Under the pieces are notes generated by a model. The model searched no databases. It was not told the DNA's origin and worked only from the letters and a program-made list of their open reading frames with translations. A stretch of DNA of 61,387 nt, from the NCBI GenBank assembly GCA_030747035.1, contig JASLLM010000002.1, positions 1 through 61,387 of the forward strand, in the 5' to 3' direction. This DNA is from Alphaproteobacteria bacterium (GTDB lineage Bacteria > Pseudomonadota > Alphaproteobacteria > GCA-2731375). The translations under genes and the position numbers were made by a program. The first letter of the stretch is position 1; each line of letters begins with the position of its first letter. Positions 7,441-45,650 of the stretch are shown piece after piece.

Positions 7441-8868
7441 CTATTGCGCGGCCCGCAGGCGATTAATGGCGGCTTCGAGGCCATCGCGCTGCTTACTCCC
7501 CGCAGGAAGTTGATCGTATAGCCGCTGCCAGCGATCAATCGCCTCTTCGGTTCGACCGGCCCCGGCATCCGCCATGCCAAGAAACCAAAGCGCCCGCGCG
7601 TTTTCCGGCTGCAGCATCTCTAATTTGCGCAAGACGTTGAGCGTCGTTTTGGGCAGTGTTTGTTCGGATGACGCACTTTGGATCAAAGCCATGGCTTGGG
7701 CATCCAGGGGAGCCGGGTCACTGGGGCGGATAGCGGCCGCCCGCCCATAGGCGTCCGCAGATTTATCCAGCTTTTGTAATACGCCATAGGCCTTGCCCAG
7801 CCGCATCCAGCCCTCAAAATCGCCAGGATCATCATTCAAGCGATCCGCCAGGCGCTGCACCATCGATAGAATGAATTTCTTGCGCTCATCAGGCGGCATA
7901 TCGGCGGCAGCCGCCATCGCGGCGCGGTCGGGCCCCGGTCTCACTTCTGTTTCAGATGTCGCGGTTGCCGTGGGCGTATCGGCCACTCCCGCCGCTACCA
8001 AGGCGCTTTCCGGATCCGCGCCAATTTCTTGCGCCACCTGGCGAATTTGCTCCGCCAAAGCCTGTCTGTTCTCGCTATTCTCCGGCAAATCCCGATAGAG
8101 GTTTAGCCAAGCTTCATAGGCTTCCCGAGAGCGACCAGCCTGCAAGTTCGCAAGAGCAAGGAAATAGCGAGCCGCGGAGTTACGAGGCGCCAAATCCAGT
8201 GCTTTCCTGAACGCCACCAAGGCATCCGGCGTAACCGTGCCCCTCTCGCCTCTCGTTAGAATATCGCCGAGCGCGACGTAAACCTCGGCATCCCCATCGG
8301 ACAGTGCAGCGGCCCGGCGCAACGCCTTAGCCGCACTATCAAAATCGCCGACCGCCGCAAGTGACCGGCCCAAAAGAATCCAGCCATCCAAATCGTCCGG
8401 TTGCGCCTGCAAGCGCGTCTCCAAACGCGCAATCATCTCGCTAACTTGGTTGCTCTGGTCCGTGGTCAATCCACGTGGCGCGACACTCGGCACCTCCCTC
8501 TCCGCCAATGGTTGATCAGGCTGACCCGGTTGACCTAGCTGGGAATAAAGCAGCAGTGTCAGAGCGGGCAGCAACAAGGCGATTGCGACGGCCATGAATG
8601 TCGACGGAGCGGCTGGACCGCTTTGAGTTTCGCTTTGCTCCGCGGCTCTAAGTATACGTCGTTCGATTTCCCGCCGAGCTTCCCCGGCTTCGCGCTCAGT
8701 CAGCGCACCGGCCGCCAATTCCGCATCAACCTCCCGCAACTGGTCGCGATAAACTTCCAAATCGTGGTCGAGTCGTTCGCTTCTAGCACCACTTGGGCGA
8801 AGCAAAGCCCAAAGGATTGGCAGAACCGCCAGTAGCGTCAGAGCGCCAATGGCCAGCCAAACACTCAT
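7441..8868 (-). CDS. ccmI: Cytochrome c biogenesis protein CcmI/CycH
   Basis: VYRDQLRE...ARREIERRIL, two TM segments and TPR repeats; last gene of the ccm operon. Confidence 0.9.
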   Translation of the reverse strand: MSVWLAIGALTLLAVLPILWALLRPSGARSERLDHDLEVYRDQLREVDAELAAGALTEREAGEARREIERRILRAAEQSETQSGPAAPSTFMAVAIALLLPALTLLLYSQLGQPGQPDQPLAEREVPSVAPRGLTTDQSNQVSEMIARLETRLQAQPDDLDGWILLGRSLAAVGDFDSAAKALRRAAALSDGDAEVYVALGDILTRGERGTVTPDALVAFRKALDLAPRNSAARYFLALANLQAGRSREAYEAWLNLYRDLPENSENRQALAEQIRQVAQEIGADPESALVAAGVADTPTATATSETEVRPGPDRAAMAAAADMPPDERKKFILSMVQRLADRLNDDPGDFEGWMRLGKAYGVLQKLDKSADAYGRAAAIRPSDPAPLDAQAMALIQSASSEQTLPKTTLNVLRKLEMLQPENARALWFLGMADAGAGRTEEAIDRWQRLYDQLPAGSKQRDGLEAAINRLRAAQ

Positions 8869-30725: not shown

Positions 30726-30783
30726 CCGGCCCCTTTCCCAGGCGGCAAGAACCGCCACCAATATTATGCAGGAGGGCACTGCC

Positions 30784-31956
30784 ATGACCGCAGCAGTCAT
30801 GCCGACCTATGGCAGAATTGATATCGCGTTTGAACGGGGCGAAGGCGCCTATATGTACGACACCAAGGGGGGCAGGTATCTGGACTTTGCCACCGGTCTT
30901 GCGGTGCTGTGCCTGGGTCACAGCCACCCCCATCTGGTGGCCGAAATCCAGAAGCAGGCCGCCACCTTGATGCATACTTCGAACCTGTACAATATTCCGG
31001 GGCAAGAGCGCCTGGCGGAACGTCTGGTCGCCAACAGCTTTGCCGACACGGTCTTTTTCTGCAATTCCGGGGCCGAGGCCAACGAATGCGCCATCAAGCT
31101 GGCCCGCCGTTACCATCACACCAACGGCAATCCAGAGCGTTACCGCATCATTACTTTCGATGACTGTTTTCATGGCCGGACCCTTGCCACCATAGCGGCG
31201 ACCGGCACGGAGAAGATTCTCGATGGCTTTGGCCCCAAGGTCGATGGCTTCGATCATGTTGCGGTCGGCGATTTCGACGGGCTGCAGGCCGCGATTGGCC
31301 CTGAGACCGCCGCCATCATGATTGAACCCGTCCAGGCCGAAGGCGGAGTAATGGTGGTCGAGGACGCCGTGATGCAGAAATTGCGGCAGGTATGCGACGA
31401 CAATGGTTTGTTGTTGATTGTCGATGAAGTCCAGACCGGCATGGGCCGAACCGGCCGACTGCTGGCCCATGAATGGTCCGGCATCAACGCCGATGTCGTG
31501 ACCTTGGGCAAGGGCATCGGCGGCGGTTTCCCCATTGGCGCCTGCATGGCAACAGCCGAAGCCGCCAAGGGCATGGTGGCGGGCACTCATGGCTCCACCT
31601 ATGGCGGCAATCCGCTGGCTGCCGCCGCGGGCAACGCAGTCTTGGATGTGATCCTCGCCGACGGTTTCATGGAGAATGTCGAGCGCCTGGGCGATCTGCT
31701 GCGCACGCGGCTGGAGGAGGTTTGCCGGCGCAATGACGCGGTGATCGAGGACGTACGCGGCCGTGGCCTGTTGCTGGGCATCAAGGCGAAAGTCCCCAAC
31801 ATGGACCTGGTGACAGCCATGCGGGGCAAGGGTGTCCTGGTGCCGCCGGCTGGTGACAATGTGATGCGCATGCTGCCGCCGCTGAATATCGAGGAGAGTC
31901 ACATCGACGAGGCCATCGCGGCACTGGAAGATGTATGCCGGGATCTGGGACAGTGA
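30784..31956 (+). CDS. argD: Acetylornithine aminotransferase
   Basis: [35 protein letters not shown]; precedes argF. Confidence 0.93.
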
Positions 31957-32897
31957 ACCAGGCGAAAAACCAACCGCGTCATTTTCTGGACATTGACCAG
32001 ATTGACGCCGGCGAACTGCGCGGCATTCTCGATAGCGCCAAGGCGCGCAAAGAGGCCCGGGCCGGCCAGCCACGGGGTAATACCGACGGTGATCTGCCAT
32101 TGACGGGCAAGGTACTGGCGATGATTTTTATCCAGCCATCAACCCGCACCCGGGTGTCATTCGATATCGGCATGCGGCAATTGGGCGGTGAGACCATCGT
32201 GCTCAACTCCGACGATCTGCAGTTGGACCGCGGCGAAACCATGGCCGATACAGCGCGGGTTCTATCTCGCTATGTGGACGCAATCATGCTGCGGACCAAG
32301 GGCCACGACATGCTGGAGGAACTGGTGGCCCATGCGACTGTACCTGTGATCAACGGACTAACGGACGCATCCCATCCCTGTCAGCTGATGGCGGACGTGA
32401 TGACCCTGGAGGAACATCGGGGGGATGTGAACAACCAGGTTATCGCCTGGTCCGGCGGCGGCAACAATGTCGCGACATCCTGGATACATGGAGCCGCGCA
32501 ATTTGGTTATGAACTGCGCCTGGCATGCCCGGAACCGTTGAGCCCATCGGCAAGCGCGGTACGCTGGGCCAGGGACAACGGCGCCAACATCACAGTAACG
32601 GAATCCGCCCAAGACGCGGTATCCGGCGCAGACTGCATCGTCTCGGATGCCTGGGTTTCCATGCATGATGATGATGAAGCGGCGGGCAACCGTCATAATA
32701 TACTGGTGCCCTATCAAGTGAATGAGGAGTTGATGGCGCAGGCAAAAAGCGATGCGGTTTTCATGCATTGCCTGCCCGTGCACCGCGGCGAGGAAGTAAC
32801 AGCGGAAGTCATCGACGGCCCGCGTTCGCTGGCTTGGGACGAGGCGGAAAACCGGCTGCACGCGCAAAAAGGCATTCTGACCTGGTGCCTGGGATAG
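31953..32897 (+). CDS. argF: Ornithine carbamoyltransferase
   Basis: STRTR, HPCQ, HCLP, EAENRLH; GTGA overlap with argD. Confidence 0.93.
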
Positions 32898-32901
32898 ACC
32901 A

Positions 32902-33840
32902 TTGACCGCCCCACCGGACGACCTGATCCGCCCCTTTCAAATTGAAGGTATGGGTGTGCGTGGCCGGCTGGTTCGGCTGGGGCCTACCCTAGACGAGATT
33001 TTGGGGCGCCACGACTATCCCGACCTCGTCTCCCATCTCCTGGGTGAGGCGGTGGCCCTATCGTGTGCCCTTGCGGGTGCCCTGAAGTTCGATGGTGTTT
33101 TCACATTGCAGACCAAGGGCGACGGCCCCGTCACCACTCTGGTCGCCGACTTCAAATCGCCCGGTGACCTGCGCGGCTATGCCCAGTTCGATGCGGACGC
33201 GGTCGGCAGCATCGATAGCAGCTCGAACCCATCGATACCGCGTCTGCAAGGTGCCGGCCATATTGCCTTCACCGTGGATCAGGGCGCCGACACGGAGCGC
33301 TACCAGGGTATTGTAGCGTTGGAAGGTCAGACTCTGGCCGATTGCGCGCACAATTATTTCCGCGAATCCGAGCAAATCGAAACGGCGATCGTCCTGGCTT
33401 GCGACAAGGCTGGCGCGGAGGCTCCCTGGCGCGGCGGTGCAATCATGCTGCAACGTCTGCCCGAAGGTGATCCGAGCCTATTGGCCCGTGGGGTCGAGGT
33501 CGAGCGGGACGAAGTATCGGAGGACGATTGGCGCCGCGTGGTGACCATGCTGGCCAGTACCCGGGACAGCGAGTTGACGGATCCAGGCTTGGCCGGGGAC
33601 GAACTTCTATACCGGCTGTTTCATGAGGACGGCGTGCGCATATTCGAGCCAACGGCGTTGCAGCCCGGCTGCCGCTGTTCCACCGGGCGGGCTGAAAGAA
33701 TACTGCGGCAATTGCCCGATACTGAATTGCCAGAGCTGGCGGTCGATAATCAATTGATCGTGACCTGTGAATTTTGCAATGCTTCCTACACCTTCCCCCT
33801 GGAACAATTCATGGCATCCAGCCAAGGCTTCGAGAGATGA
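32902..33840 (+). CDS. hslO: Hsp33 redox chaperone
   Basis: YQGIV, YFRESEQI, CRCS...CEFC zinc site. Confidence 0.95.
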   Translation: MTAPPDDLIRPFQIEGMGVRGRLVRLGPTLDEILGRHDYPDLVSHLLGEAVALSCALAGALKFDGVFTLQTKGDGPVTTLVADFKSPGDLRGYAQFDADAVGSIDSSSNPSIPRLQGAGHIAFTVDQGADTERYQGIVALEGQTLADCAHNYFRESEQIETAIVLACDKAGAEAPWRGGAIMLQRLPEGDPSLLARGVEVERDEVSEDDWRRVVTMLASTRDSELTDPGLAGDELLYRLFHEDGVRIFEPTALQPGCRCSTGRAERILRQLPDTELPELAVDNQLIVTCEFCNASYTFPLEQFMASSQGFER

Positions 33841-34436
33841 AAATTCCAACTGCTCCATTCCTGCTGCCCGCCCTGTGTCTTTGCCTTCTGCTGACCGCCT
33901 GCGAAAGCCCCCTGCAGGAGGTCAAATACCCGGAGCTGCGCTTCAACCACCTGCCAGTGATAGAGTTGAACGTGGCGCGTATCGATATCGTCGAGCAATA
34001 TCGTTCGCCGCTGCGGCCGCCCAACGTGGAACACGAACTGCCTCTGGCTCCCGCCAAGGCCATGCGGAATTGGGCCAATGACCGTCTGCGCGCCGTGGGC
34101 AGCAGCGGCCGGGCGGTATTCGTCATTGCCGATGCCTCCGTCAAGGCGCAGCCGCTACAGAAGAAAAAGGGCCTGAAGGCCATGTTCACCCTGGATCAGG
34201 CCGCCCGTTATAATGCCCGGCTGGAAGCCCGGCTGGAGGTCGAAACAGCCGCAGGACTGGGCAAGGGTTTCGCGGCGGCGGCGGCGACCCGGCAGCGCAC
34301 CATGCCCGAAGCGGTCAGCATGAACGACCGCGACGATGCGCTCTATCGTTTCGTCGAAGAGGCCACCAAGGATTTCGACCGTGTCATGGTAGCCAATATT
34401 GACCGCCATCTGGCACCGTTCAAAGCCTCGCGGTGA
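33837..34436 (+). CDS. Hypothetical lipoprotein
   Basis: Lipobox LLTAC; ATGA overlap with hslO. Confidence 0.75.
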   Translation: MKIPTAPFLLPALCLCLLLTACESPLQEVKYPELRFNHLPVIELNVARIDIVEQYRSPLRPPNVEHELPLAPAKAMRNWANDRLRAVGSSGRAVFVIADASVKAQPLQKKKGLKAMFTLDQAARYNARLEARLEVETAAGLGKGFAAAAATRQRTMPEAVSMNDRDDALYRFVEEATKDFDRVMVANIDRHLAPFKASR

Positions 34437-34440
34437 GCAA

Positions 34441-35598
34441 CTAGGCTAGGCGCGCAATCAATTTGCGCATGAAGTCGGTACACGCCTCGACCTGAGATAT
34501 CTCGATATATTCGTCCGGTCGATGGGCCACGGAAATACTGCCCGGCCCGCAGATGACCGAAGCAATGCCACCCTTCTGGAAAATGCCGGCCTCGGTGCCA
34601 TAGGAAACGGCATAGGTCTGGTTACTGCCGGTCAACGCCAGCACCAGAGTTTCCGCCGGCGAACCATCCTCGGGCACCAGCGGGATAATTTCGCCGCGCA
34701 CATCGATCCGAATATCTGATTCAGGGTGCACCGCGCGCATTTTCGGCAAGACTGTTGTCTGGGCAAAGTCTTCGAAAGCACCGATGACCGCACCACCATC
34801 AACGCCCGGCAGTGCCCGGTATTCCCACCAAAATGTGGTTTCCTTGGGAATGATATTACCGGCGGTTCCCCCCGTTATGGTTCCCACCTGGACCGTTGTA
34901 TAGGGCGGATCGAAGCGTTCATTGACGTTGGACGTTTTGAACTCCTCGGCCAGATTGGCCAGATATTGGATCAACTCGGCGGCGGCGAATATGGAATTGA
35001 CGCCTTTGTGCGTCTCCGATGAATGGCCTTCCAGGCCGGTCACCGTGGTTCGAATGGCGCAGCATCCCTTGTGCGCGTTGACCACCTTCATTTCCGTTGG
35101 TTCACCGACGATCAGCGCCTGCGGCCGGCAGGGCAGCCCCTGAATATGGCGGGATAGGTCCGGCGCACCGAGGCAACCGACTTCCTCGTCATAGGAAAGC
35201 GCGAAATGAATGGGCAGGGCGAGGCCGCGTTCCAGCATCGCCGGCACCAAGGCCAGCGCTATGGCACAGAAACTCTTCATATCCGCGGTACCACGGCCAT
35301 AGAGACGGCCATCACGCTCATCCACTTGAAATGGATCGGACGACCAGTCCTGGCCATCGACCGGAACCACGTCCGTATGGCCAGAAAGCACCACGCCGCC
35401 ATCGATCATCGGCCCGACCGTCGCGAACAAATTGGCCTTGGCACCGCTCTTGTCATGAATCAGGGTCGATTCCACACCGTATTCCGCCAAATAATCACGC
35501 ACGAAATGCATCAGTTCCAAATTGGATTCCCGGCTTGTGGTATCAAAAGCGACCAGACGCTCGATCATCTGACGCGACGTAAAGACTTGTTTGGACAT
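34441..35598 (-). CDS. argE: Acetylornithine deacetylase (M20 family)
   Basis: SGHTDVV, GRGTADMK, YDEEVG, GEPT, AHRPDE. Confidence 0.9.
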   Translation of the reverse strand: MSKQVFTSRQMIERLVAFDTTSRESNLELMHFVRDYLAEYGVESTLIHDKSGAKANLFATVGPMIDGGVVLSGHTDVVPVDGQDWSSDPFQVDERDGRLYGRGTADMKSFCAIALALVPAMLERGLALPIHFALSYDEEVGCLGAPDLSRHIQGLPCRPQALIVGEPTEMKVVNAHKGCCAIRTTVTGLEGHSSETHKGVNSIFAAAELIQYLANLAEEFKTSNVNERFDPPYTTVQVGTITGGTAGNIIPKETTFWWEYRALPGVDGGAVIGAFEDFAQTTVLPKMRAVHPESDIRIDVRGEIIPLVPEDGSPAETLVLALTGSNQTYAVSYGTEAGIFQKGGIASVICGPGSISVAHRPDEYIEISQVEACTDFMRKLIARLA

Positions 35599-35704
35599 GG
35601 ACGGATCCCCAATACATCGTTGGGCTTAGGATAGCGGTCGACCGCGCGACGGTCCACTAATCGGAGCGCTTGATCATACCGGCGGGACTGCGTAGTTTCC
35701 CGCC

Positions 35705-36946
35705 ATGTCTTGGCAAGTACGAAAAGCGGTAGTACCCGGTATTGTGGTTCTGGCGGCGCTGGCGGGTGCGGTGTATCTGCTGCGCACCAAACCCGTTGTC
35801 GCACCGATGGACAAGGTCGAGCAACCTTGGCTGGTCACCGCGGCCAAGGTCGGCTTGGGTGATATTCAGCCCCGGCTTCAGCTTTACGGAGAGATTGTCG
35901 CCGGGCGCGAGGTTGAGCTGCGAGCCCTGGTGGCTGGCGAGGTCGTGGCCGTTGCCGATAAATTCGTCGATGGCGGCAGCCTGCGCCAGGGTGACATGAT
36001 CGTCGCCATCGATGATTTCGACTATCGCGCCAGATACGATGAACTTTTAGCCCAGGTGCGGGAAGCCACCGCCCGGCTGGAGGAAATCAAGGCTCGCAAG
36101 AAATCCTATGCGGCCGCTTTGCGGCGAGACCTGGAAATGGTGAAGCTGCACGAACGCGATGTGGAACGCATGCGGGCGCTTTCCGGCCGGGGTACGGTTT
36201 CCGACAAGAAGATGGACGACGCCCACATGGCATTGACCCAACAACAAAAAACCGCGGAAATGCGGCAAAGCGATCTGGCGGCGGAAGCAGCGCATATCAG
36301 ACAGCAGGAAGCCGTCATCAACCGCCTCAACGTAGGCCTGCGCCGCGCCAAGCGCGATTTGCAGCGGGTTCGCTTGACCGCCCCTTTCGATGGATTCCTG
36401 GCCGACGTACAGGCCCAGGTAGGCAAACGGCTAAGCGCGAATGACCGCGTGGCCCGGTTGATCGATGCCGGGCGGCTGGAAGCACGGGTAACCCTGTCCG
36501 ACCGTCAGTATGGCCGTTTGGTATCCGACGGCGCGCTGACCGGGCGGCCGGTAAAGATCACCTGGCAGGTAGGCGGACACGGCTTCACCTATGCCGGCCG
36601 TCTGGACCGTATCGGCGCCCGCATTGATAGTGCCAGCGGCGGTGTACAGGTTTTCATTCGTCTCGCGGGTGTTGATCTGTCGAAACCTTTGCGGCCCGGC
36701 GCCTTCGTCACCGTCACCATGCCCGACCGAACATTTCGCGGCGTCGCGCAACTACCCGAAAGCGCCCTCTATGACAGCAACACGGTTTACGTGGTTCAAG
36801 GTGAGCGCTTGGAAAAACGCGCGGTTGAACTGGTGGCGCGGGTTGGCAATGACGTCCTGCTGCGCGGCGAAATCCAGAATGGCGAGCAGGTCATAACGAC
36901 CCGGTTCGCGGAAATCGGGCCAGGGCAAAAGGTGGAAATCCGCTAG
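35705..36946 (+). CDS. RND periplasmic adaptor (membrane fusion protein)
   Basis: N-terminal anchor, long coiled hairpin, TAPFDG, LRPGAFV. Confidence 0.92.
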   Translation: MSWQVRKAVVPGIVVLAALAGAVYLLRTKPVVAPMDKVEQPWLVTAAKVGLGDIQPRLQLYGEIVAGREVELRALVAGEVVAVADKFVDGGSLRQGDMIVAIDDFDYRARYDELLAQVREATARLEEIKARKKSYAAALRRDLEMVKLHERDVERMRALSGRGTVSDKKMDDAHMALTQQQKTAEMRQSDLAAEAAHIRQQEAVINRLNVGLRRAKRDLQRVRLTAPFDGFLADVQAQVGKRLSANDRVARLIDAGRLEARVTLSDRQYGRLVSDGALTGRPVKITWQVGGHGFTYAGRLDRIGARIDSASGGVQVFIRLAGVDLSKPLRPGAFVTVTMPDRTFRGVAQLPESALYDSNTVYVVQGERLEKRAVELVARVGNDVLLRGEIQNGEQVITTRFAEIGPGQKVEIR

Positions 36947-39900
36947 ATGTCCCCCGCCGATTTGGTACGCCTGTTCGTCCGGCACCGCAATGCGGCCAAT
37001 CTATTGATGGTGGTCATGCTGGTTCTGGGCGCTGTATCCCTTTCCCGGCTAAACACTCAGTTTTTTCCCGACTTCGGTATCGACATGGTCTCGATCACCG
37101 TTGCTTGGCCAGGTGCCAGCGCCGAAGACGTCGAAGCCAACATCGTCACGGCCATCGAACCGGAAGTGCGCTATTTGAACGATGTGGACCACGTCGAGTC
37201 ATTCGCTGTCGAGGGCTCTGGTACCGTCTTGGTAAAATACAATGCCGGCAGCGATATGCAGGCCGGCCGCGCTGACGTGGTGTCCGCCGTCGCCCAGGTC
37301 ACGACCTTGCCAGCGGGCAGCGAAACCCCGATCATTCGCCGCGTTGCCCGTTTCGATACGATCTCCCGGATTGCCCTCTCCGGCCCGTTTAGCGAAAGCG
37401 CTTTGAAAGCCATTGCCAAGCGTATCCGCGAAGGATTGCTGGCCCGCGGCATCGATCAGGTCATCATGTTCGGTGCCAGAGACGAGGAAATCTGGGTCGA
37501 CATGACGCCCCAGTCCTTGCGCCGGCTGGACCTGAGCCTTGATGACATCGCCGAGCGTATCCGCGCCCGTAGCCAGGATCTGCCCTCGGGCAACATCGAA
37601 GGCCAGGTCGAGAAGCAGATCCGCAGCCTGGGTCTAGAAACCACCGCCACCGGCCTGGGAGATATCGAAATCCGCTCGCTGCCGAATGGCGAGAAGATCC
37701 GCCTCGGCGACGTTGCCAGGGTACAGGAAGCCTTTGACGACAGTGCGCCCGAGGGACGTCTATCGGCCAATCGGGCGATAGAGCTGCACGTGAAGCGCGC
37801 TGTCGGCGCCGATGCGCTGGATATCTCACAAACCGTCGAGGACTATCTGGCCGAACTTCGCCTGACCCTGCCGCCTACTCTGACGTTGGAGCACTATGAC
37901 GTTCAGGCCGGATTGATACGCGAGCGCATCAATATCCTGTTGAAGAACGGGCTTGGCGGCCTGGCGTTGGTGCTGATCATACTGTTCATCTTTCTCAATC
38001 TTAGGGTCGCCATATGGGTCGCCGCCGGTATACCGGTGGCCCTGTTGGCCACCATGGGGGTCATGCTGATGAGCGGTCAGTCCATCAACATGGTCAGCCT
38101 GTTCGCCTTGATCATGACCCTGGGCATTATCGTTGATGACGCGATCGTGGTTGGCGAACACAGCGCGGCCCGTCGCGACCGGGGTTTGGACCCACAACAA
38201 TCCGCCGAGGAAGGCGCCCTGCGCATGCTGGCGCCGGTCATCGCCTCGTCCCTGACGACAATCGCCGCCTTTCTGCCGCTGTTCATTATCGGCGGCATTA
38301 TCGGCACAATTCTACGCGCCATTCCGCTGGTCACCGTTTCGGTTCTGGTCGCCTCGTTGATTGAATGTTTCTTGATTCTACCAGGTCATTTGCGCGGTGC
38401 GTTGCTGCATGGCAGCGAAAAGGAATCCCGGCCGCGGGCATGGTTCAACCATCACTTTGGCCGTTTCCGAAGCGGCGGCTACCGCCGTGCACTGGAGGTC
38501 TGCGTGCAATGGCGGTATCTGACCCTGGCTAGCGCGCTCGCCGGTCTGATTCTGGCCCTCGGCATCATCGCCGGCGGACGGGTCGGGTTTCAATTCTTTC
38601 CCACACCCGAGGGCGATATTGTCTACGGCAATGTAGTGATGATGCCCGGCACGCCACGCGAGCGGACGGAGGCGATGGTGCGGGAGTTGGAACGGGCCGC
38701 GCATAGCGCGGCGGAACGCTATCCCGGGCAGACGCGGAGTGGCGAAGACCTGATCCAGTCAACATTCGGCAAGCTGGGCCGGACCCAGGCCAACGAGTTC
38801 CAATCCGTGCGCGGCGACAAGTACGGCGGCCTTTATGTGCAGCTGGTGCCCTCGGATCACCGCCAGGTACGCATGCCTGAATTCATCACGACCTGGCGCG
38901 AGCAGATCCAAATGCAGCCTGGTGTCGATCGAGTCAACCTCAACGAACGCCGCGGCGGCCCGCCGGGCAAGGAAATCGATATCCGCCTGAGCGGCGGCAG
39001 CACCCGGGATCTCAAAGACGCCACCCGCGAGATCAAGGCGCTACTCGGCCGCTTCCCGGGCGTCAGCGATGTCGAGGATGATCTGCCTTATGGCAAGCAA
39101 GAGGTTATTCTTGAACTGACGCCCCGTGGCAGGGCCCTTGGCTTTTCCACCGACAGCGTCGGCCGGCAGGTTCGTTCGGCCTTCGAGGGCGCCATCGCGA
39201 AACGGTTTCCACGCGGCGATGAAGAGGTCACCGTGAAGGTGCAGTACGCCCGTGGCGCCATAACCACCGAGGATCTGCTAAACCTCTACCTCAGCAGTCC
39301 CACCGGTGTGGAAGTACCGTTGAGCGAGGTTGTCTCCATGCGGGAGAGCGCCGGTTTCGCCCGCATTCGGCGCAAGGACGGTCAGCGCGAGATCGCCATC
39401 ACCGGGGAGCTGGATGAAAGCAAGATCCGCTCGGGCAAACTGATTGAGGCGCTGGAGGAGGGTGAACTGCCCCAGATTGCCCGGCGTTTCGGGCTGCAAT
39501 ACAGCTTTGCCGGACGGGCCGAGGAACAGGCCCGCACCATGGCCGATATGAAGCTAGGAGCCATGGTCGGCATGGCGGCGATCTACATTATCCTGGCCTG
39601 GGTCTTCGCCTCCTACACCAGACCGATCGTGGTGATGGCGGTGATCCCCTTTGGCATCGTCGGCGCCGTCATCGGGCATCTGTTGTTGGGCTATGATCTT
39701 AGCCTGCTTACGCTGGTCGGCCTGCTGGGCCTGTCGGGCATCCTGGTCAATGATTCCATCATTCTGGTCTCCACCATCGACGAGCGCATCGCTGCCGGCG
39801 AAGAAACCATGCAGGCCATTATTGCCGGCAGCCAGGACCGCCTGCGCGCCGTACTCTTGACCTCGCTAACCACCATCGGCGGGCTAACGCCATTGCTGTT

Positions 39901-40627
39901 CGAAACCAGCCTGCAGGCGCAGTTCCTGATCCCCATGGCGATCACCATGATCTTCGGACTGGCCGTCGCCACCGTTCTGGTACTGCTGGTAATCCCTTCC
40001 CTTATCGCGATCCAGTTGGATTTTCATAACCAGCGCCAGCGCTTCCGTACCTGGCGGGCGCTGCTGCCGCAGAAATGGCAAGCGTATCGCATGGGCACCA
40101 CCCGGGCAAAGTTACTGGTCATTTTGAATTTCCTTGAACGCAGCGTTGCGGGTATCGGGTTCTGGACAGCGGTAATTGTGCTGCCGTCCATGATTTGCGT
40201 GCGAATTTACGAGATCATCGCCCGCAAGGTTTTCAACGCGCCGTCAAACTTTCCGCAATATCTGGAATGGGAATTGTTTCTACTGCTGGTATTTTTGACC
40301 CTGGGCTATGGCTACGTCCGTGGTGCCCATGTCCGGGTCGATATCATACGTGACCAGCTTTCGACGGTATTGCGAAACAGGATCGAGTTGCTCGGCCTGC
40401 TTTTGCTGATGTTGCCCTTTGCCGCGGTCATTATCTACTACGGCATACCCTACGTTATCGAAAGCTTCACCAGCGGCGAGAAATCCGCCTTGGCCCTTGG
40501 CGCCCCGGCACGCTGGATAATGAAGAGTGCGATGCCATTCGGCATCGGTCTGTTCATTGTTGCGGCGATTGTCGCCGCCTTGCGCAATCTGACCCAGCGG
40601 CAGAAAAAATTCGACGATCGGGAATAG
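36947..40627 (+). CDS. RND permease fused to a C-terminal TRAP small subunit (DctQ)
   Basis: Residues 1-~1026 are RND (GIIVDDAIVVGE, GILVNDSIIL, RLRAVLLTSLTT). Residues ~1049-1226 form a 4-TM DctQ (LEWELF, GAHVRVDII, ARWIMKSAMP). No stop codon between them. Confidence 0.88.
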   Translation: MSPADLVRLFVRHRNAANLLMVVMLVLGAVSLSRLNTQFFPDFGIDMVSITVAWPGASAEDVEANIVTAIEPEVRYLNDVDHVESFAVEGSGTVLVKYNAGSDMQAGRADVVSAVAQVTTLPAGSETPIIRRVARFDTISRIALSGPFSESALKAIAKRIREGLLARGIDQVIMFGARDEEIWVDMTPQSLRRLDLSLDDIAERIRARSQDLPSGNIEGQVEKQIRSLGLETTATGLGDIEIRSLPNGEKIRLGDVARVQEAFDDSAPEGRLSANRAIELHVKRAVGADALDISQTVEDYLAELRLTLPPTLTLEHYDVQAGLIRERINILLKNGLGGLALVLIILFIFLNLRVAIWVAAGIPVALLATMGVMLMSGQSINMVSLFALIMTLGIIVDDAIVVGEHSAARRDRGLDPQQSAEEGALRMLAPVIASSLTTIAAFLPLFIIGGIIGTILRAIPLVTVSVLVASLIECFLILPGHLRGALLHGSEKESRPRAWFNHHFGRFRSGGYRRALEVCVQWRYLTLASALAGLILALGIIAGGRVGFQFFPTPEGDIVYGNVVMMPGTPRERTEAMVRELERAAHSAAERYPGQTRSGEDLIQSTFGKLGRTQANEFQSVRGDKYGGLYVQLVPSDHRQVRMPEFITTWREQIQMQPGVDRVNLNERRGGPPGKEIDIRLSGGSTRDLKDATREIKALLGRFPGVSDVEDDLPYGKQEVILELTPRGRALGFSTDSVGRQVRSAFEGAIAKRFPRGDEEVTVKVQYARGAITTEDLLNLYLSSPTGVEVPLSEVVSMRESAGFARIRRKDGQREIAITGELDESKIRSGKLIEALEEGELPQIARRFGLQYSFAGRAEEQARTMADMKLGAMVGMAAIYIILAWVFASYTRPIVVMAVIPFGIVGAVIGHLLLGYDLSLLTLVGLLGLSGILVNDSIILVSTIDERIAAGEETMQAIIAGSQDRLRAVLLTSLTTIGGLTPLLFETSLQAQFLIPMAITMIFGLAVATVLVLLVIPSLIAIQLDFHNQRQRFRTWRALLPQKWQAYRMGTTRAKLLVILNFLERSVAGIGFWTAVIVLPSMICVRIYEIIARKVFNAPSNFPQYLEWELFLLLVFLTLGYGYVRGAHVRVDIIRDQLSTVLRNRIELLGLLLLMLPFAAVIIYYGIPYVIESFTSGEKSALALGAPARWIMKSAMPFGIGLFIVAAIVAALRNLTQRQKKFDDRE

Positions 40628-40639
40628 GACCGGGTTTGC

Positions 40640-42019
40640 ATGTTTGAATTCGTCGATATCCTGCCCTACGCTATGCTGGCTGCCCTTGCGATCCTGATAT
40701 TTTCCGGGTTGCCGGTGGCCATATTGCTGGCCGGCCTGGGCATTGCCTTTTCCCTGATTGGCATCGCCCTGGACGAAATGCCTTGGATCGCCCTGTTGAA
40801 CGTGCCCTTGCGCCTGTACGGCAGCATTAACGGCAGCCTGATCTATCCCACGGTACCGATGCTGCTGTTCATGGGCATGGCGTTGGAGAAAAGCGGCATT
40901 GCCCGGGATTTGTTGCTATGCCTGCAGCATTTGTTGCGCCGTGTGCCGGCCGGCATGGCCATCGCGGTAACCTTGCTGGGCGTTTTGCTGGCGCCCACCG
41001 CAGGCGTTGTTGGCGCCTCCGTCGCCACGCTGGCCCTGATCGCCCTGCCAACCATGTTGGATCAGGGTTACCGCTCATCCCTGGCCAGCGGCGTGGTGGC
41101 GGCCGCGGGGACCCTGGGGCTGATCCTGCCACCCGCGATCATGCTGTTTTTTCTGGCGGGAAAGCTGCGGGTTCCCATTGGGCATATTTTCCTCGCCGCC
41201 ATGTGGCCGGCGGGCATTCTGATCAGTCTTTATCTGCTCTACTACATAACGGCGGCAATCATTTCGCCGCCCACCGCCACCAAGGGGCATACGGAGCAGG
41301 ACTGGAGCCAGGGCTGGTCCCCATGGCAATGGTTCGGCTTTTATGTGCGCGGCCTGATATTGCCCGCTGGATTGATCTTTCTGGTATTGGGTTCAATTAT
41401 TTTTGCCTGGGCCACGCCGTCCCAGTCAGGCGCCGTGGGCGCGGCGGGCGGATTGCTGTTGATGCTGCTAAACCGTCGGCTGACCTGGCCCCTGTTCCGC
41501 GAGGCCATAGAAGGCACGGCTTTGATGACCGCCATGGTTTTCTTTATCGTCCTGGCGACCAACATCTTCTCTTATCCGTTTCGCTTTTTCAGCGGCGATG
41601 AAGTTGTCAGCGGCATGTTGCATGGGCTGGCCTTTGGTGATTGGGGCATGCTGCTGACCATCATTGGCATCATCTTTATCCTTGGCTTTTTCATCGACTG
41701 GATCGAGATTACCGTCATCACCTTGCCGTTGTTTCTGCCCGTGCTGGCGGAATTGGATTTCGCCGCCCATGCCGGCGAAGGCACCGGCAAGGCGCTGTGG
41801 ATGGCAACCCTGATCGCCCTGACCCTACAGACCTCGTTCCTGACGCCGCCCTTCGGCTTCGCACTATTCTTTCTGAAAGGCGCCGCCCCGCCCGAGGTCA
41901 AGATCACGGATGTCTATCGCGGCATTGTTCCCGTCGTGGGCGCGCAGCTGTTCGTAATCGGCCTGGTCATGGCCTTCCCGCTGTTGGCCAACTGGCTGCC
42001 GAACCAGCTTTTCAACTAA
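40640..42019 (+). CDS. dctM: TRAP transporter large permease DctM (FcbT3-like)
   Basis: PMLLFMG.ALEKSGIA, AGTLGLILPP, GFFIDWIEI, QTSFLTPPFGFALFFLKG. Confidence 0.9.
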   Translation: MFEFVDILPYAMLAALAILIFSGLPVAILLAGLGIAFSLIGIALDEMPWIALLNVPLRLYGSINGSLIYPTVPMLLFMGMALEKSGIARDLLLCLQHLLRRVPAGMAIAVTLLGVLLAPTAGVVGASVATLALIALPTMLDQGYRSSLASGVVAAAGTLGLILPPAIMLFFLAGKLRVPIGHIFLAAMWPAGILISLYLLYYITAAIISPPTATKGHTEQDWSQGWSPWQWFGFYVRGLILPAGLIFLVLGSIIFAWATPSQSGAVGAAGGLLLMLLNRRLTWPLFREAIEGTALMTAMVFFIVLATNIFSYPFRFFSGDEVVSGMLHGLAFGDWGMLLTIIGIIFILGFFIDWIEITVITLPLFLPVLAELDFAAHAGEGTGKALWMATLIALTLQTSFLTPPFGFALFFLKGAAPPEVKITDVYRGIVPVVGAQLFVIGLVMAFPLLANWLPNQLFN

Positions 42020-43398
42020 AAACCCGCTGGCGGCGTCACGCCGCACGGTGCCAGGGCAGACGTCACGGCGTCCTTCAGGCGGCTCAGCCCAGCATCGTCG
42101 GTGGCCTCGCAGCGCACCACCAGAACGGGCTGGGTGTTGGAGGCGCGCAGCAGCCACCAGCCGTCCGGGGTAGAGACGCGGGCGCCGTCTACGTCGGAAA
42201 AATTGGCGCCCTGGGCCCGCAGGTTCGCGACAACCTCGTCAACGACCTGAAATTTGCGGGCGTCGTCGCAATCAAAGCGAACCTCCGGTGTGTTGACCAT
42301 TTGCGGCAGGCTGTCACGCAGTTCGGTCACGCTCTGACCGGACCGGGCAACGGCATCCAGGAACCGTACCGCCACATATAGCGCATCATCGAAACCGTAA
42401 TATTTGTCGGCAAAGAATATATGCCCGCTCATCTCGCCGGCCAGGGGGGAGCCGGTCTCCGCCATCTTGCTTTTGATTAGCGAGTGGCCGGTTTTGTACA
42501 TCATGGGTTCGCCGCCCAGGCGGGCGACCTCGTCGAACAAGACCTGGCTGGCCTTCACATCGGCGATGATGGTGCTGCCGGGATGTTTCGCCAAAACATC
42601 ACGCGACAACAGCGCCAATAGCTGATCGCCCCATAGTATCCTCTCCTGGCCGTCGATCACGCCGATCCGGTCGCCATCGCCATCAAAACCGATGCCCAGG
42701 TCCAGCTTCTCCGACGTCACCGCGCCCTGCAATTGCACCAGGTTTTCCGCCACCGTCGGATCCGGATGATGGGCCGGAAAGGTGCCGTCCACCACCTCGT
42801 TCAAGGACACATGGCGGCCGGGCAGGCGGGCGATCAAATCGGGCAATATGTCGCCGGCAACCCCATTGCCGCAATCCCAGGCCACGGACAAGGGCGTGTC
42901 CGTGGTGTAGGCCGCGGCCAATTCGTCCAGATAAGCCGGGCGGACATCGTGATCCTCGGCGCCACCGGCGCCTTCCACCCAGCCGCCGGCTCCCGCTATA
43001 CGGCCCAATTCCTGGATCTGATCACCAAAAAAGGCTTTTCCATCCAGCATCATTTTGAAACCGTTATAATCCGGTGGGTTGTGCGAACCAGTCACCATGA
43101 CGCCGGCATCAGCCCGCAAATGATAGACCGAGAAATACAGCATGGGGGTCGGTCCCCGGCCGATCCGCAAGGCGGTGATACCCGCATCGTTCAGGCCCCT
43201 TACCAGATGCTCAGCCATTTCCACCGAGGTCAGGCGGCCGTCATAGCCGACAGCGGTCCGTGTGCCGCCGTTTCGGGCCACGATGGTGCCGAAGGCACGG
43301 CCGACCGCGTAGGCATCCGCCGTGGACAGAGTATCGCCGACGATGCCGCGTACGTCGTATTCGCGTAGCACCGAGCCGTGAAAGCTGTGTTCTTGCAT
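42016..43398 (-). CDS. Phosphomannomutase/phosphoglucomutase
   Basis: TGSHNP, FDGDGDR, GEMSGH. Confidence 0.95.
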   Translation of the reverse strand: MQEHSFHGSVLREYDVRGIVGDTLSTADAYAVGRAFGTIVARNGGTRTAVGYDGRLTSVEMAEHLVRGLNDAGITALRIGRGPTPMLYFSVYHLRADAGVMVTGSHNPPDYNGFKMMLDGKAFFGDQIQELGRIAGAGGWVEGAGGAEDHDVRPAYLDELAAAYTTDTPLSVAWDCGNGVAGDILPDLIARLPGRHVSLNEVVDGTFPAHHPDPTVAENLVQLQGAVTSEKLDLGIGFDGDGDRIGVIDGQERILWGDQLLALLSRDVLAKHPGSTIIADVKASQVLFDEVARLGGEPMMYKTGHSLIKSKMAETGSPLAGEMSGHIFFADKYYGFDDALYVAVRFLDAVARSGQSVTELRDSLPQMVNTPEVRFDCDDARKFQVVDEVVANLRAQGANFSDVDGARVSTPDGWWLLRASNTQPVLVVRCEATDDAGLSRLKDAVTSALAPCGVTPPAGF

Positions 43399-43422
43399 TA
43401 TTTCAGACTTTCCCGGTCAGGG

Positions 43423-44733
43423 TTAAACCGCCGGACGGCCAATGGAAACATATGTGAAGCCCTGATCGCGCATGGTATCGGGATCGTAGATATTGCGCAT
43501 GTCGACCAGTACCGGCGTCTTCAAAAGATCCCTTACCCGGGGCATGTCCAAGGCGCGGTAGGCATTCCATTCGGTGATAATGGCCAGGGCATCCGCGTCG
43601 GCCAGGGTGTCGTATGCATCATCGCAATATTCAATCCCGGTCAGCAATTCCCGCGCCTCATCCATGCCCTCGGGATCATGGGCCCTTATCTCCGCGCCCG
43701 CCGCGATCAGGGCGGGGATGATATCCAGGCTTGGGGAATCGCGCATGTCATCGGTATTCGGCTTGAAGGTCAGGCCCAGGACGGCGATGGTCTTGCCTTG
43801 CAGGGAACCACCGCAGGCATCGATCACCTTCTTCGCCATGTCGCGCTTGCGCTGATCGTTGACCTCGACGGTCGCCTTGACGATGTTCATGGGCAGATCG
43901 AGGCTTTCCGCCGTGCGCAGCAAGGCCAGGGTGTCCTTGGGAAAGCAGGAGCCGCCATAGCCGGGACCCGCGTGCAGGAATTTGCTGCCGATACGGCCAT
44001 CCAGTCCGATGCCCCGGGCCACATCCTGGACATCCGCCTCCACCCGTTCACACAGATTAGCGATTTCATTGATGAAAGTGATCTTGGTGGCCAGAAATGC
44101 ATTGGCGGCATATTTGATCAGTTCCGCCGTCTGCCGGGCCGTGAACATCACCGGCGTCTCGTTCAGGAACAAGGAGCGGTAAAGTTCCCGCATAACCTCA
44201 CGGGCGCGCTCGCTTTCTGTACCGACCACAACGCGGTCTGGCCGCATAAAATCGCTGATGGCCGCGCCCTCGCGCAGGAACTCCGGGTTCGAGGCGACGT
44301 CATAGTCAGCATCCGGCCGGTTTTCGCCAATAATCCTGGCAACTTCCGCGCCGGTACCCACCGGTACCGTCGATTTGGTCACGATCACCGTATAGCCGTC
44401 CAGCGCCGCCGCCACCTCCGCCGCCGCGTCGTAAACGTAGCTTAGATCCGCATGGCCGTCGCCCCGGCGCGATGGCGTTCCCACCGCGATGAACACAGCA
44501 TCCGCATCCGGCACCTGTTGTTTCAAATCGGTGGTGAAGGACAGACGCCCAGCCGCGACGTTGCTTGCCACCAGTTGCTCCAGGCCCGGCTCGAATATAG
44601 GGATTCGGCCCGCCAGCAAGGCATCGATCTTATCAGCGTCCTTGTCGACACAGGTTACGGTATGGCCGAATTCGGAAAAGCAGGCGCCCGAGACCAAACC
44701 TACATAGCCGGTGCCGATCATGGTGACATGCAT
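43423..44733 (-). CDS. ugd: UDP-glucose 6-dehydrogenase
   Basis: GTGYVG, NPEFLREG, GYGGSCFPKD, FKPNTDDMR. Confidence 0.95.
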   Translation of the reverse strand: MHVTMIGTGYVGLVSGACFSEFGHTVTCVDKDADKIDALLAGRIPIFEPGLEQLVASNVAAGRLSFTTDLKQQVPDADAVFIAVGTPSRRGDGHADLSYVYDAAAEVAAALDGYTVIVTKSTVPVGTGAEVARIIGENRPDADYDVASNPEFLREGAAISDFMRPDRVVVGTESERAREVMRELYRSLFLNETPVMFTARQTAELIKYAANAFLATKITFINEIANLCERVEADVQDVARGIGLDGRIGSKFLHAGPGYGGSCFPKDTLALLRTAESLDLPMNIVKATVEVNDQRKRDMAKKVIDACGGSLQGKTIAVLGLTFKPNTDDMRDSPSLDIIPALIAAGAEIRAHDPEGMDEARELLTGIEYCDDAYDTLADADALAIITEWNAYRALDMPRVRDLLKTPVLVDMRNIYDPDTMRDQGFTYVSIGRPAV

Positions 44734-44768
44734 ACTGTTTCTGGTCCTACATAATACTCAGGTAATGG

Positions 44769-45650
44769 TTAGCGGGATTGACCTGCCGGGGTGATTTCCG
44801 ACAGGTATTCACTCAGTCCCTGCCGCAGATCGTCCCGGTCCAAACCAAAAGCGATGGTGGCCTGCAGGAAACCCAGTTTGTCGCCGCAGTCAAATCGGGT
44901 GCCTTCAAATCGCAAGCCATGAAAAGGCCGTTCCCCAATCATCTTAGCCATGGCGTCGGTCAATTGAATTTCGCCGCCCGCACCCTTTTCCTTCCGCCCG
45001 AGATAGTCAAATACCTCCGGCATCAGGATGTAGCGGCCAATCACCGACAAGGTGGACGGCGCCTCAGCCGGATCGGGTTTTTCCACCAGGCCCCGCACTT
45101 CGGCCAGGCGGCCATCATCCTGACCCACATCCAGGATACCATAGCGGTCGGTATGTTCTTTCGGCACATCCATGACCGCCACCATGTTGCCCCCCGTCTC
45201 GGCGGCGGCGTCCGCCATTTGTTTCAGACAGGGCGTCTTGCTCTGGATCAAATCGTCCGCCAGCAGGACCGCGAAAGGTTCATTGCCGACAAGGTTCCTG
45301 GCGCACCAGACCGCGTGGCCAAGCCCCAGTGGTTCCTGCTGCCGAGTATAGGCAACCTGCCCGGCGTCGGGAATAGCGGCCCGCAGCGCCGCCAATTCAT
45401 CGTTCTTGTCGCGGGATGACAGCAGGTCCTCCAACTCGTAGGAATGATCAAAATGGTCCTCGATCGCGGTCTTGCCGCGGCCGGTGACAAAGATGAACTC
45501 TTCCACTCCCGCCGCCGCCGCTTCCTCCACCGCATATTGGATCAACGGCTTGTCGACGATGGGCAGCATCTCCTTGGGCAGAGCCTTGGTCGCCGGCAGA
45601 AACCGTGTGCCCATTCCACCCACCGGAAAAACCGCCTTGCGTACGCGCAT
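44769..45650 (-). CDS. galU: UTP-glucose-1-phosphate uridylyltransferase
   Basis: GTRFLPATKALPKEMLP, VEKP, GEIQLTDA. Confidence 0.96.
   Translation of the reverse strand: MRVRKAVFPVGGMGTRFLPATKALPKEMLPIVDKPLIQYAVEEAAAAGVEEFIFVTGRGKTAIEDHFDHSYELEDLLSSRDKNDELAALRAAIPDAGQVAYTRQQEPLGLGHAVWCARNLVGNEPFAVLLADDLIQSKTPCLKQMADAAAETGGNMVAVMDVPKEHTDRYGILDVGQDDGRLAEVRGLVEKPDPAEAPSTLSVIGRYILMPEVFDYLGRKEKGAGGEIQLTDAMAKMIGERPFHGLRFEGTRFDCGDKLGFLQATIAFGLDRDDLRQGLSEYLSEITPAGQSR

Follow-up and report, generated by a model that had tools for sequence, protein, structure and literature searches.

RND pumps and TRAP transporters are textbook opposites: the former are proton-driven exporters, whereas the latter are importers that depend on a binding protein. 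In AcrB, the classical proton relay involves the Asp-Asp pair of transmembrane helix (TM) 4, the lysine of TM10, and the arginine and threonine of TM11. The tolC gene is unlinked from the pump genes in E. coli, and AcrZ and YajC are known as small accessory membrane proteins of RND pumps. Here we describe a locus in which members of the two families are covalently joined. It lies in contig JASLLM010000002.1 of an alphaproteobacterial metagenome-assembled genome (MAG), the analysed stretch of which, 61,387 nucleotides long, is called the window. Three co-directional genes follow each other nearly without spacing across positions 35705-42019 and encode a periplasmic adaptor (MFP), an RND permease whose reading frame continues into the small TRAP membrane subunit DctQ, and the large TRAP permease DctM.

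Like the HAE1 tripartite pumps (AcrAB-TolC, MexAB-OprM, MexJK), the locus has a full-length ACR_tran domain, an adaptor gene directly upstream, the TM4 Asp-Asp and the TM11 Arg...Thr; unlike them, it carries a C-terminal four-TM DctQ, and the lysine of TM10 is replaced by Asn, followed by Asp. The outer-membrane factor gene is unlinked in this genome, as is the case for AcrAB-TolC. With TRAP transporters (DctPQM, SiaPQM) it shares complete DctQ and DctM domains and a dctM gene right after dctQ, but it has no DctP, and the N-terminus of DctQ is joined to an RND pump. It also departs from the usual DctQ-DctM fusion (TIGR02123 type) in that the C-terminus of DctQ is not joined to DctM. An extra membrane component beside or upstream of the RND trimer is reminiscent of AcrZ, YajC and the exporters that feed AcrAB-TolC; these are separate polypeptides of unrelated families, whereas here the subunit of another transporter is covalently attached. 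An earlier note, made from the letters of this stretch, had known of no described system with such an architecture, and full-text literature searches, judged from titles and abstracts, likewise found no paper on an RND-DctQ fusion. The locus is composed of the following parts:

35705-36946, plus strand: RND periplasmic adaptor (MFP) gene, 413 aa, first in the operon; TIGR01730 RND_mfp, Pfam HlyD_3
36947-40627, plus strand: fused open reading frame of RND permease, linker and DctQ, 1226 aa, stop codon at 40625-40627
36947-40015, plus strand: RND (HAE1-like) permease domain, residues 1-1023, 12 TM; Pfam ACR_tran
40016-40150, plus strand: basic linker, residues 1024-1068, 45 aa, predicted to be cytoplasmic; contains a non-conserved Met at 40091
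40151-40624, plus strand: DctQ domain (TRAP small membrane subunit), residues 1069-1226; Pfam DctQ, AHVRVD motif
40628-40639, plus strand: 12-nt spacer between the fused frame and dctM, read from the sequence
40640-42019, plus strand: dctM (TRAP large permease), 459 aa; Pfam DctM

The earlier note had read the 1226-aa frame as a complete RND pump, a basic linker and a four-TM DctQ, and Pfam indeed places both domains on this one chain. ACR_tran (PF00873) spans residues 7-1019 (profile positions 2-1016 of 1021, E 8e-162) and DctQ (PF04290) residues 1082-1216 (positions 1-131 of 132, E 4e-20, 72.5 bits against a cut-off of 28.3); four hydrophobic stretches read from the sequence of the latter domain match four TM helices. 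The two neighbouring genes stand where the note had placed them, and all else in the note that could be checked proved correct. The MFP stop codon abuts the RND ATG directly, with no gap, and the adaptor scores 168.7 bits with TIGR01730 (NCBIfam, cut-off 94.9). On the other side, dctM begins 12 nucleotides downstream of the fused frame, and AGGA at 40626-40629, overlapping the stop of that frame, could be its ribosome-binding site. DctM matches PF06808 over residues 14-447 of its 459-aa frame (profile positions 2-411 of 413, E 3e-52, 178 bits against 23.8) and scores below the stricter TIGR00786 cut-off (198.7 bits against 268.45); its nearest solved structures are the isethionate TRAP DctMQ 9pym and SiaQM 7qe5. 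The fused DctQM permease profile TIGR02123 reaches 15.8 against a cut-off of 320.65, and DctM is encoded in a frame separate from that of DctQ.

The join of pump and DctQ is a genuine, vertically inherited gene fusion. The assembly that holds the window is a MAG of 351 contigs with a completeness of 84.7%, and a check of the junction at 40000-40120 had been proposed in the earlier note. Contigs from four seawater metagenome runs of four studies bridge this junction with no indel, no stop and no substitution in the linker: a 2370-nt contig covers 39488-41000 in two of the runs, and contigs of 965 and 1010 nt cover 39400-40347 in two. Since two of the four runs seem to duplicate one data set and the source sample may be among the runs, at least two of the samples are independent. 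Queried with residues 990-1226, a word index of 5.8 billion proteins yielded nine clusters with ACR_tran and DctQ on one chain of 1202-1226 aa, which are 57-100% identical over these residues. The DctQ part alone, used as a query for longer proteins, also found nine, every one of them such a fusion. Public sources, where they name the fused proteins, use 'efflux RND transporter permease subunit'. The same open frame, 1214-1226 aa long (up to 1246 aa if counted from stop to stop), is present in 11 further genomes.

The order to which these genomes belong has one family (f1), with 33 genomes in eight genera. We took the locus from 26 genomes and mapped nine proteins of the window onto the loci. 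In the sister genera g1 and g2, the RND gene and trkH flank dctQ-dctM, and dctQ continues the reading frame of the pump. An intact fusion together with a full-length dctM was found in 12 of the 22 g1 and g2 genomes (G000, G001, G002, G004, G006, G007, G008, G011, G014, G018, G019, G021); the search for this architecture and synteny, as suggested in the earlier note, thus shows that the fusion is not unique to one assembly. Five of the 22 retain MFP-RND without a working DctQ-DctM half. Three of these (G009, G015, G016) have a stop within the linker together with deletions in DctQ/DctM, and in the other two (G017, G010) the RND protein has a new short tail and is followed by trkH. The converse situation exists in two genomes (G005, G020), where an intact, full-length DctQ-DctM stands directly beside argE and MFP-RND is deleted. 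Everything between argE and trkH is lost in two more (G003, and G013, in which MFP fragments remain). The last of the 22, G012, has a 1-nt deletion at the junction, so that the RND frame ends at ...DFSN and DctQ and DctM are intact in another frame.

Two of these loci deserve a closer description. In G012 (locus L029, minus strand, ~8720-8735), comparison with its sister G015 places a TGA after ...DFSN as a result of the deletion, and the shifted DctQ is without an obvious start; the frameshift may reflect a faulty assembly or else a split that happened very recently. In G020 (locus L030, ~1901-2935), the last TM helix of the RND protein is left in frame before linker and DctQ, and this remnant aligns to window residues 1001-1226 at 54% identity. 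If translated from the RND remnant, the DctQ of G020 would carry an extra N-terminal helix.

Outgroups and trees point to the direction of change. In G022 (genus g3) the order is Hsp33, a hypothetical gene and argE on the minus strand, then MFP and RND, then trkH on the minus strand; G024 (genus g5) has the same order from argE onward. Their RND proteins end at their own stop after a short tail, at 1040 aa (G022) and 1037 aa (G024), and the orthologous dctQ-dctM of G022 lies about 200 kb from the RND gene, among unrelated genes and without DctP. In the RND tree rooted with g3 and g5, the fused g2 species branches first, and the RND-only g1 species fall in four separate places nested among fused ones (SH-aLRT 94-100); in the DctM tree, G005 and G020 group with the fused G002. 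The RND tree implies at least four independent losses of the DctQ/DctM half with MFP-RND kept intact (five genomes). The simplest history would be a single insertion and fusion in the ancestor shared by g1 and g2, followed by repeated loss of either half. A dctQ-dctM cassette already without dctP would have entered the space that separated trkH from an older argE|MFP-RND operon, and the stop codon of the RND gene and the start of dctQ would have disappeared.

Both halves have been maintained by selection where they are fused. Nei-Gojobori estimates of dN/dS for nine species pairs are 0.04-0.10 for RND, 0.08-0.23 for DctQ, 0.05-0.14 for DctM and 0.10-0.64 for the linker, with dS up to or above 1 in the comparison of DctQ and DctM, and with the synonymous sites of the linker saturated in two pairs. 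Since the ratios of the DctQ tail and of DctM are low, these are working genes in the fused species. The earlier note had considered that relatives might show a stop in the linker with separate genes, or that DctQ and DctM might be decaying; the linker stops that do occur accompany deletions in DctQ/DctM, and the frames of the window are intact and under purifying selection.

The net charge of the linker is +7 in the window protein and +4 to +11 across the 12 fused orthologues in the alignment; its length is 44 aa in one fused species and 45 aa in the other 11, and its sequence drifts. AcrB-type pumps have their C-terminus, and DctQ its N-terminus, on the cytoplasmic side, and on account of this topology and of the strongly basic charge the linker is predicted to lie in the cytoplasm. 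Both the ATG (40091) and the HVRVD codons (40328-40342) stand where the earlier note had them, and its statement that no ribosome-binding site precedes this internal Met holds, as there is no Shine-Dalgarno motif 4-16 nt ahead of the ATG. A Met at this position is present in three of the 12 fused species only (G000, G007, G021), and in none of the 12 does an in-frame ATG, GTG or TTG between TM12 and the first TM of DctQ have a Shine-Dalgarno motif 4-16 nt upstream. Since none of the 12 species provides DctQ with a start codon or a ribosome-binding site, the domain can only be synthesised as an extension of the pump. This dependence on translation of the pump also explains why linker stops (G009, G015, G016) always come with a decayed DctQ/DctM.

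A second clade of RND::DctQ fusions exists. An HMMER search with linker and DctQ, exhaustive over 1.84 billion representatives, gave 2521 hits. Among the best 150 of these 2521 DctQ representatives, three have ACR_tran and DctQ by Pfam, namely P0151 (1232 aa), P0106 (902 aa, N-terminally cut) and P0202 (620 aa, partial), and ACR_tran is the only foreign partner domain above the Pfam cut-off. P0151 is 26% identical overall to the window protein, and the core motifs of its RND half differ (TM4 VDG, TM10 VNN); with its seven fused relatives (P0230-P0236, 760-1307 aa), the clade comprises eight clusters. Two of its proteins are assigned by their sources to a Gammaproteobacteria MAG and a Pseudomonadota MAG. 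The arrangement is that of the window protein, with ACR_tran, then a linker of ~45-55 aa, then DctQ, in chains of 1187-1307 aa, but the linkers are unrelated in sequence and the RND half belongs to another subfamily. This RND subfamily (AVLYAFVM, QFNSFY, VDG/VNN) is widespread, a relative being encoded in 504 of 598 pattern-matching metagenome stretches.

In a tree of 154 DctQ domains, the window clade (12 fused rows) groups with the unfused DctQs of the family and 12 unfused representatives (SH-aLRT 98). The second clade is separate from it (99), and both lie in one subclade of 44 rows (97). An approximately unbiased (AU) test on the short DctQ alignment, for a group of fused DctQs that was chosen after inspection of the tree, does not reject a single clade (p 0.17). 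An earlier AU constraint (p 1e-51) was discarded as ill-posed, because fragments and secondary rows with DctQ-DctM only, nested in clade A, had been forced outside. Given that the AU test does not reject one DctQ clade, the independence of the two fusions rests on their RND halves and on synteny. Apparently, a single DctQ subfamily was fused to RND pumps on two independent occasions.

No relative was recovered from metagenomes with the C-terminal part of P0151 as the query, and a scan with alignment A1 returned 80 loci (L056-L135), all of them unfused RND relatives at 39-44% identity and none with DctQ or DctM nearby. Among 401 genomes sampled evenly across the phylum, the C-terminal part matched twice, in the window itself and in an ordinary DctQ of G072; the RND half of the second clade is present in 64 of the same genomes at 34-44% identity (E <= 1e-180), in none of them fused. 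A further lead in G072, where a match containing one TAG extended to residue 1094, turned out to be a fortuitous extension through low-complexity sequence, with no DctQ there. A plasmid search gave 76 records; the 15 listed all show less than 36% identity, and the features annotated under them are without exception ordinary TRAP small permease subunits. The ESM Atlas was searched for the context of the second clade, with no usable hit. Regarding N-terminal partners of DctQ besides RND, 11 other extended proteins contain no Pfam domain there. In P0229 (426 aa), DctQ at residues 247-365 follows a weak RDD match (21.1 bits, below the cut-off of 24.1). Several DctQ representatives have N-terminal extensions of 110-190 aa without a Pfam domain, which may be miscalled starts.

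The TRAP half of the locus appears without its usual third component. The earlier note had seen neither a DctP nor a TolC-type gene alongside, and indeed neither DctP (PF03480) nor OEP/TolC has a match on the contig of the window (C222), nor does any binding-protein family occur in 15 neighbouring open reading frames within ~10 kb of the operon. The note had also proposed a look for an orphan dctP. In the own assembly, all six DctP matches lie on contigs with another DctQ, the fused DctQ being the seventh; in G004, which is 100% complete, all nine DctP genes adjoin a DctM of their own, and so do the four of G011. None of these three genomes has an orphan DctP that would complete a tripartite TRAP system, in a genome-wide search made with PF03480 only, TAXI and other binding-protein families not having been searched. 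Likewise, the unfused orthologues of G005, G020, G022, G023, G041 and G046 have no DctP in their vicinity or on their contig, and DctP beside DctQ is met in the distant relatives G025 (36% DctQ identity) and G072. Judging from this distribution, the cassette seems to have lost DctP before the fusion. Characterised TRAP systems strictly need their binding protein, according to passages of a 2018 review (PMC5812351).

To judge from the sequences, the domains are typical of their families save for three departures: the TM10 Asn, a pump score below the cut-offs, and the DctM score under that of TIGR00786. The RND half has the full-length profile match of an HAE1-like pump, and MexK, MexB and AcrB are its closest solved structures. 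Its score with the named pumps of NCBIfam is 448 against a cut-off of 1250, far enough below to place it in an uncharacterised subfamily. The motifs that the earlier note had called intact, the DD of TM4 and the RLR..LLT of TM11, are present as VDD (396-398) and RLRAVLLTS (965-973). Absent from its observations was the substitution in TM10, where GILVNDSI (931-938, nt 39737-39760) stands at the position at which solved HAE1 pumps have ...KNAILIV. The classical Lys is thereby changed to Asn, followed by an Asp in a manner that resembles the VDD of TM4, with the Asp-Asp of TM4 and the Arg and Thr of TM11 kept. All three motifs are invariant in the 17 orthologues examined, fused or unfused. Both further components of a tripartite pump are available, as the adaptor is encoded in the operon (with an MFP orthologue directly upstream in 18 of 18 related loci that include the RND 5' end) and outer-membrane factors elsewhere in the genome. 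Four OEP matches in the own assembly correspond to two genes, on contigs C26 and C31, either of which is a candidate outer-membrane partner of the pump.

The operon is bounded by two genes on the opposite strand:

34441-35598, minus strand: left boundary, divergent acetylornithine deacetylase gene (ArgE, M20); NF005710, 514.5 bits, cut-off 412
42016-43398, minus strand: right boundary, convergent phosphoglucomutase/phosphomannomutase gene; Pfam PGM_PMM I-IV

A promoter and terminator scan of 35400-42300 gave two promoter-like and eight terminator-like sites, against 2.8 and 7.4 in shuffles, and no internal promoter or terminator signal. On the left, argE adjoins the MFP gene in g1, g2, g3 and g5 genomes. 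It belongs to a stretch with arginine-biosynthesis genes (30766-35598: class III aminotransferase, ornithine carbamoyltransferase, then Hsp33, a 220-aa frame without a family, and ArgE), a neighbourhood that gives no clue to the substrate of the pump. On the right, the phosphoglucomutase/phosphomannomutase gene overlaps the dctM stop by 4 nt. The flank at 42016-45650, with pgm, ugd and a nucleotidyl transferase gene, is found in the window and G007 alone; all other relatives examined with that flank, and the outgroups, have trkH instead, usually followed by a family III CoA-transferase gene and a 288-aa gene. By this comparison, the change shared by the window and G007 is a later rearrangement that ended exactly at the dctM stop.

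What the fusion does for the cell can be explained in several ways. We give an even chance to the reading that it locks two mechanistically autonomous modules into co-expression and co-localisation. DctQ would be translated only as the tail of the pump, and this tail would most likely still pair 1:1 with DctM, giving up to three TRAP-type elevator units per RND trimer. The pump would export with its adaptor and an unlinked outer-membrane factor, and DctQ-DctM would act as an ion-coupled secondary transporter without a cognate DctP; the fusion would thus confer obligatory co-expression and co-localisation, not an obligate joint mechanism. The idea of the earlier note that DctQ tethers a DctM to each RND protomer would be a natural structural consequence of the missing DctQ start and of the 1:1 complex of DctQ and DctM reported in passages of a review (PMC5812351). 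Autonomy is indicated by the relatives, for either half was lost there with the other kept intact, and therefore neither half needs the other.

Several points weigh against this reading. The near-fixed length of the linker may reflect a spatial constraint between the two halves. Since characterised TRAP systems need a binding protein, a DctQM working alone without DctP would be an unproven mode of transport. An unlinked or unrecognised binding protein may exist, and the own assembly is only 84.7% complete. Finally, the recurrence of the fusion with a very different RND half suggests a non-accidental association and favours functional coupling over mere co-expression.

Such coupling could take the form of a relay, the main rival reading, which we consider possible but not likely. 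DctQ-DctM, without a binding protein to force transport inward, would carry a small anionic metabolite out of the cytoplasm and into the periplasm beside the pump, and the adaptor, the RND permease and the outer-membrane factor would export it across the outer membrane; in a variant, the two halves would share or balance ion gradients. RND pumps take their substrates from the periplasm, and single-component inner-membrane exporters feed AcrAB-TolC. The absence of DctP and the nearly invariant linker length are consistent with a relay, and so is the attachment of the same DctQ subfamily to the RND C-terminus in the second clade, with other TM4 and TM10 motifs. The two fused groups are moreover split by unfused DctQs on the DctQ tree (SH-aLRT 98 and 99), and ACR_tran is the sole foreign partner above the Pfam cut-off among the 150 nearest DctQ representatives. 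However, the intact survival of either half alone in relatives speaks against an obligate version, the unfused orthologues in g3, g4 and g23 are not beside an RND gene, and none of the 80 loci of unfused clade-B RND relatives has DctQ or DctM nearby. The AU test, too, leaves a single clade of fused DctQs unrejected (p 0.17), and to our knowledge no TRAP membrane unit exports. A hard-wired two-step export line, with three binding-protein-free TRAP units per pump trimer, that would have evolved twice (alpha- and gammaproteobacterial) with unrelated RND partners, is a proposal that we make tentatively and regard as rather doubtful.

It is unlikely that DctQ-DctM is a conventional TRAP importer relying on a binding protein that is encoded at another site or is of an unrecognised family, the fusion being incidental. 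All characterised TRAP systems need a binding protein, as passages of the review have it (PMC5812351), the nearest tripartite relatives (G025, G072) keep DctP beside DctQ, and the own assembly is incomplete at 84.7%. Yet every DctP identified by PF03480 shares a contig with another DctQ in the own genome (6/6) or adjoins another DctM in G004 (9/9) and G011 (4/4), and the 15 open reading frames within ~10 kb include no binding-protein family.

We see very little likelihood that DctQ is made separately, whether through translation starting inside the linker, as at the Met at 40091, or through proteolysis of the fused chain, so that the fusion would exist at the DNA level only. The ATG at 40091 in the window's genome (G000) does have a Met at the same position in G007, but this residue is shared by three of the 12 fused species only, and no candidate start with a Shine-Dalgarno motif was found in the 12. 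DctQ/DctM is degraded in all three relatives with a linker stop; the junction deletion of G012, if real, requires separate expression of DctQ, but may be a MAG assembly error.

The view that the DctQ-DctM half is a functionless passenger heading for loss, with only the pump of importance, is highly improbable. DctQ-DctM was indeed lost in at least four independent events and the whole block in two genomes; against this stand the dN/dS values of DctQ (0.08-0.23) and DctM (0.05-0.14), the intact frames in 12 species and the intact DctQ-DctM where the pump is deleted (G005, G020). An assembly or sequencing artefact, such as a missed stop codon or a chimeric contig in a MAG fragmented into 351 contigs, can practically be dismissed, given that separately assembled contigs of four runs bridge the junction identically and that 11 other species have the same open frame and synteny.

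Altogether, the join is firmly established and apparently recurrent. A stable covalent connection of an RND pump with a TRAP subunit, under purifying selection in about 12 species, represents an undescribed architecture that is masked by public annotation. It provides a natural test of whether a TRAP membrane unit works without a binding protein, a question still open in passages of the 2018 review (PMC5812351). It likewise allows one to ask whether a trans-envelope pump can have inner-membrane transporters physically wired to it, and the relatives that have lost one half are ready-made controls. If the halves are independent, the family offers a clean case of an inserted cassette that became a fusion and was locked in by the loss of its own start codon.

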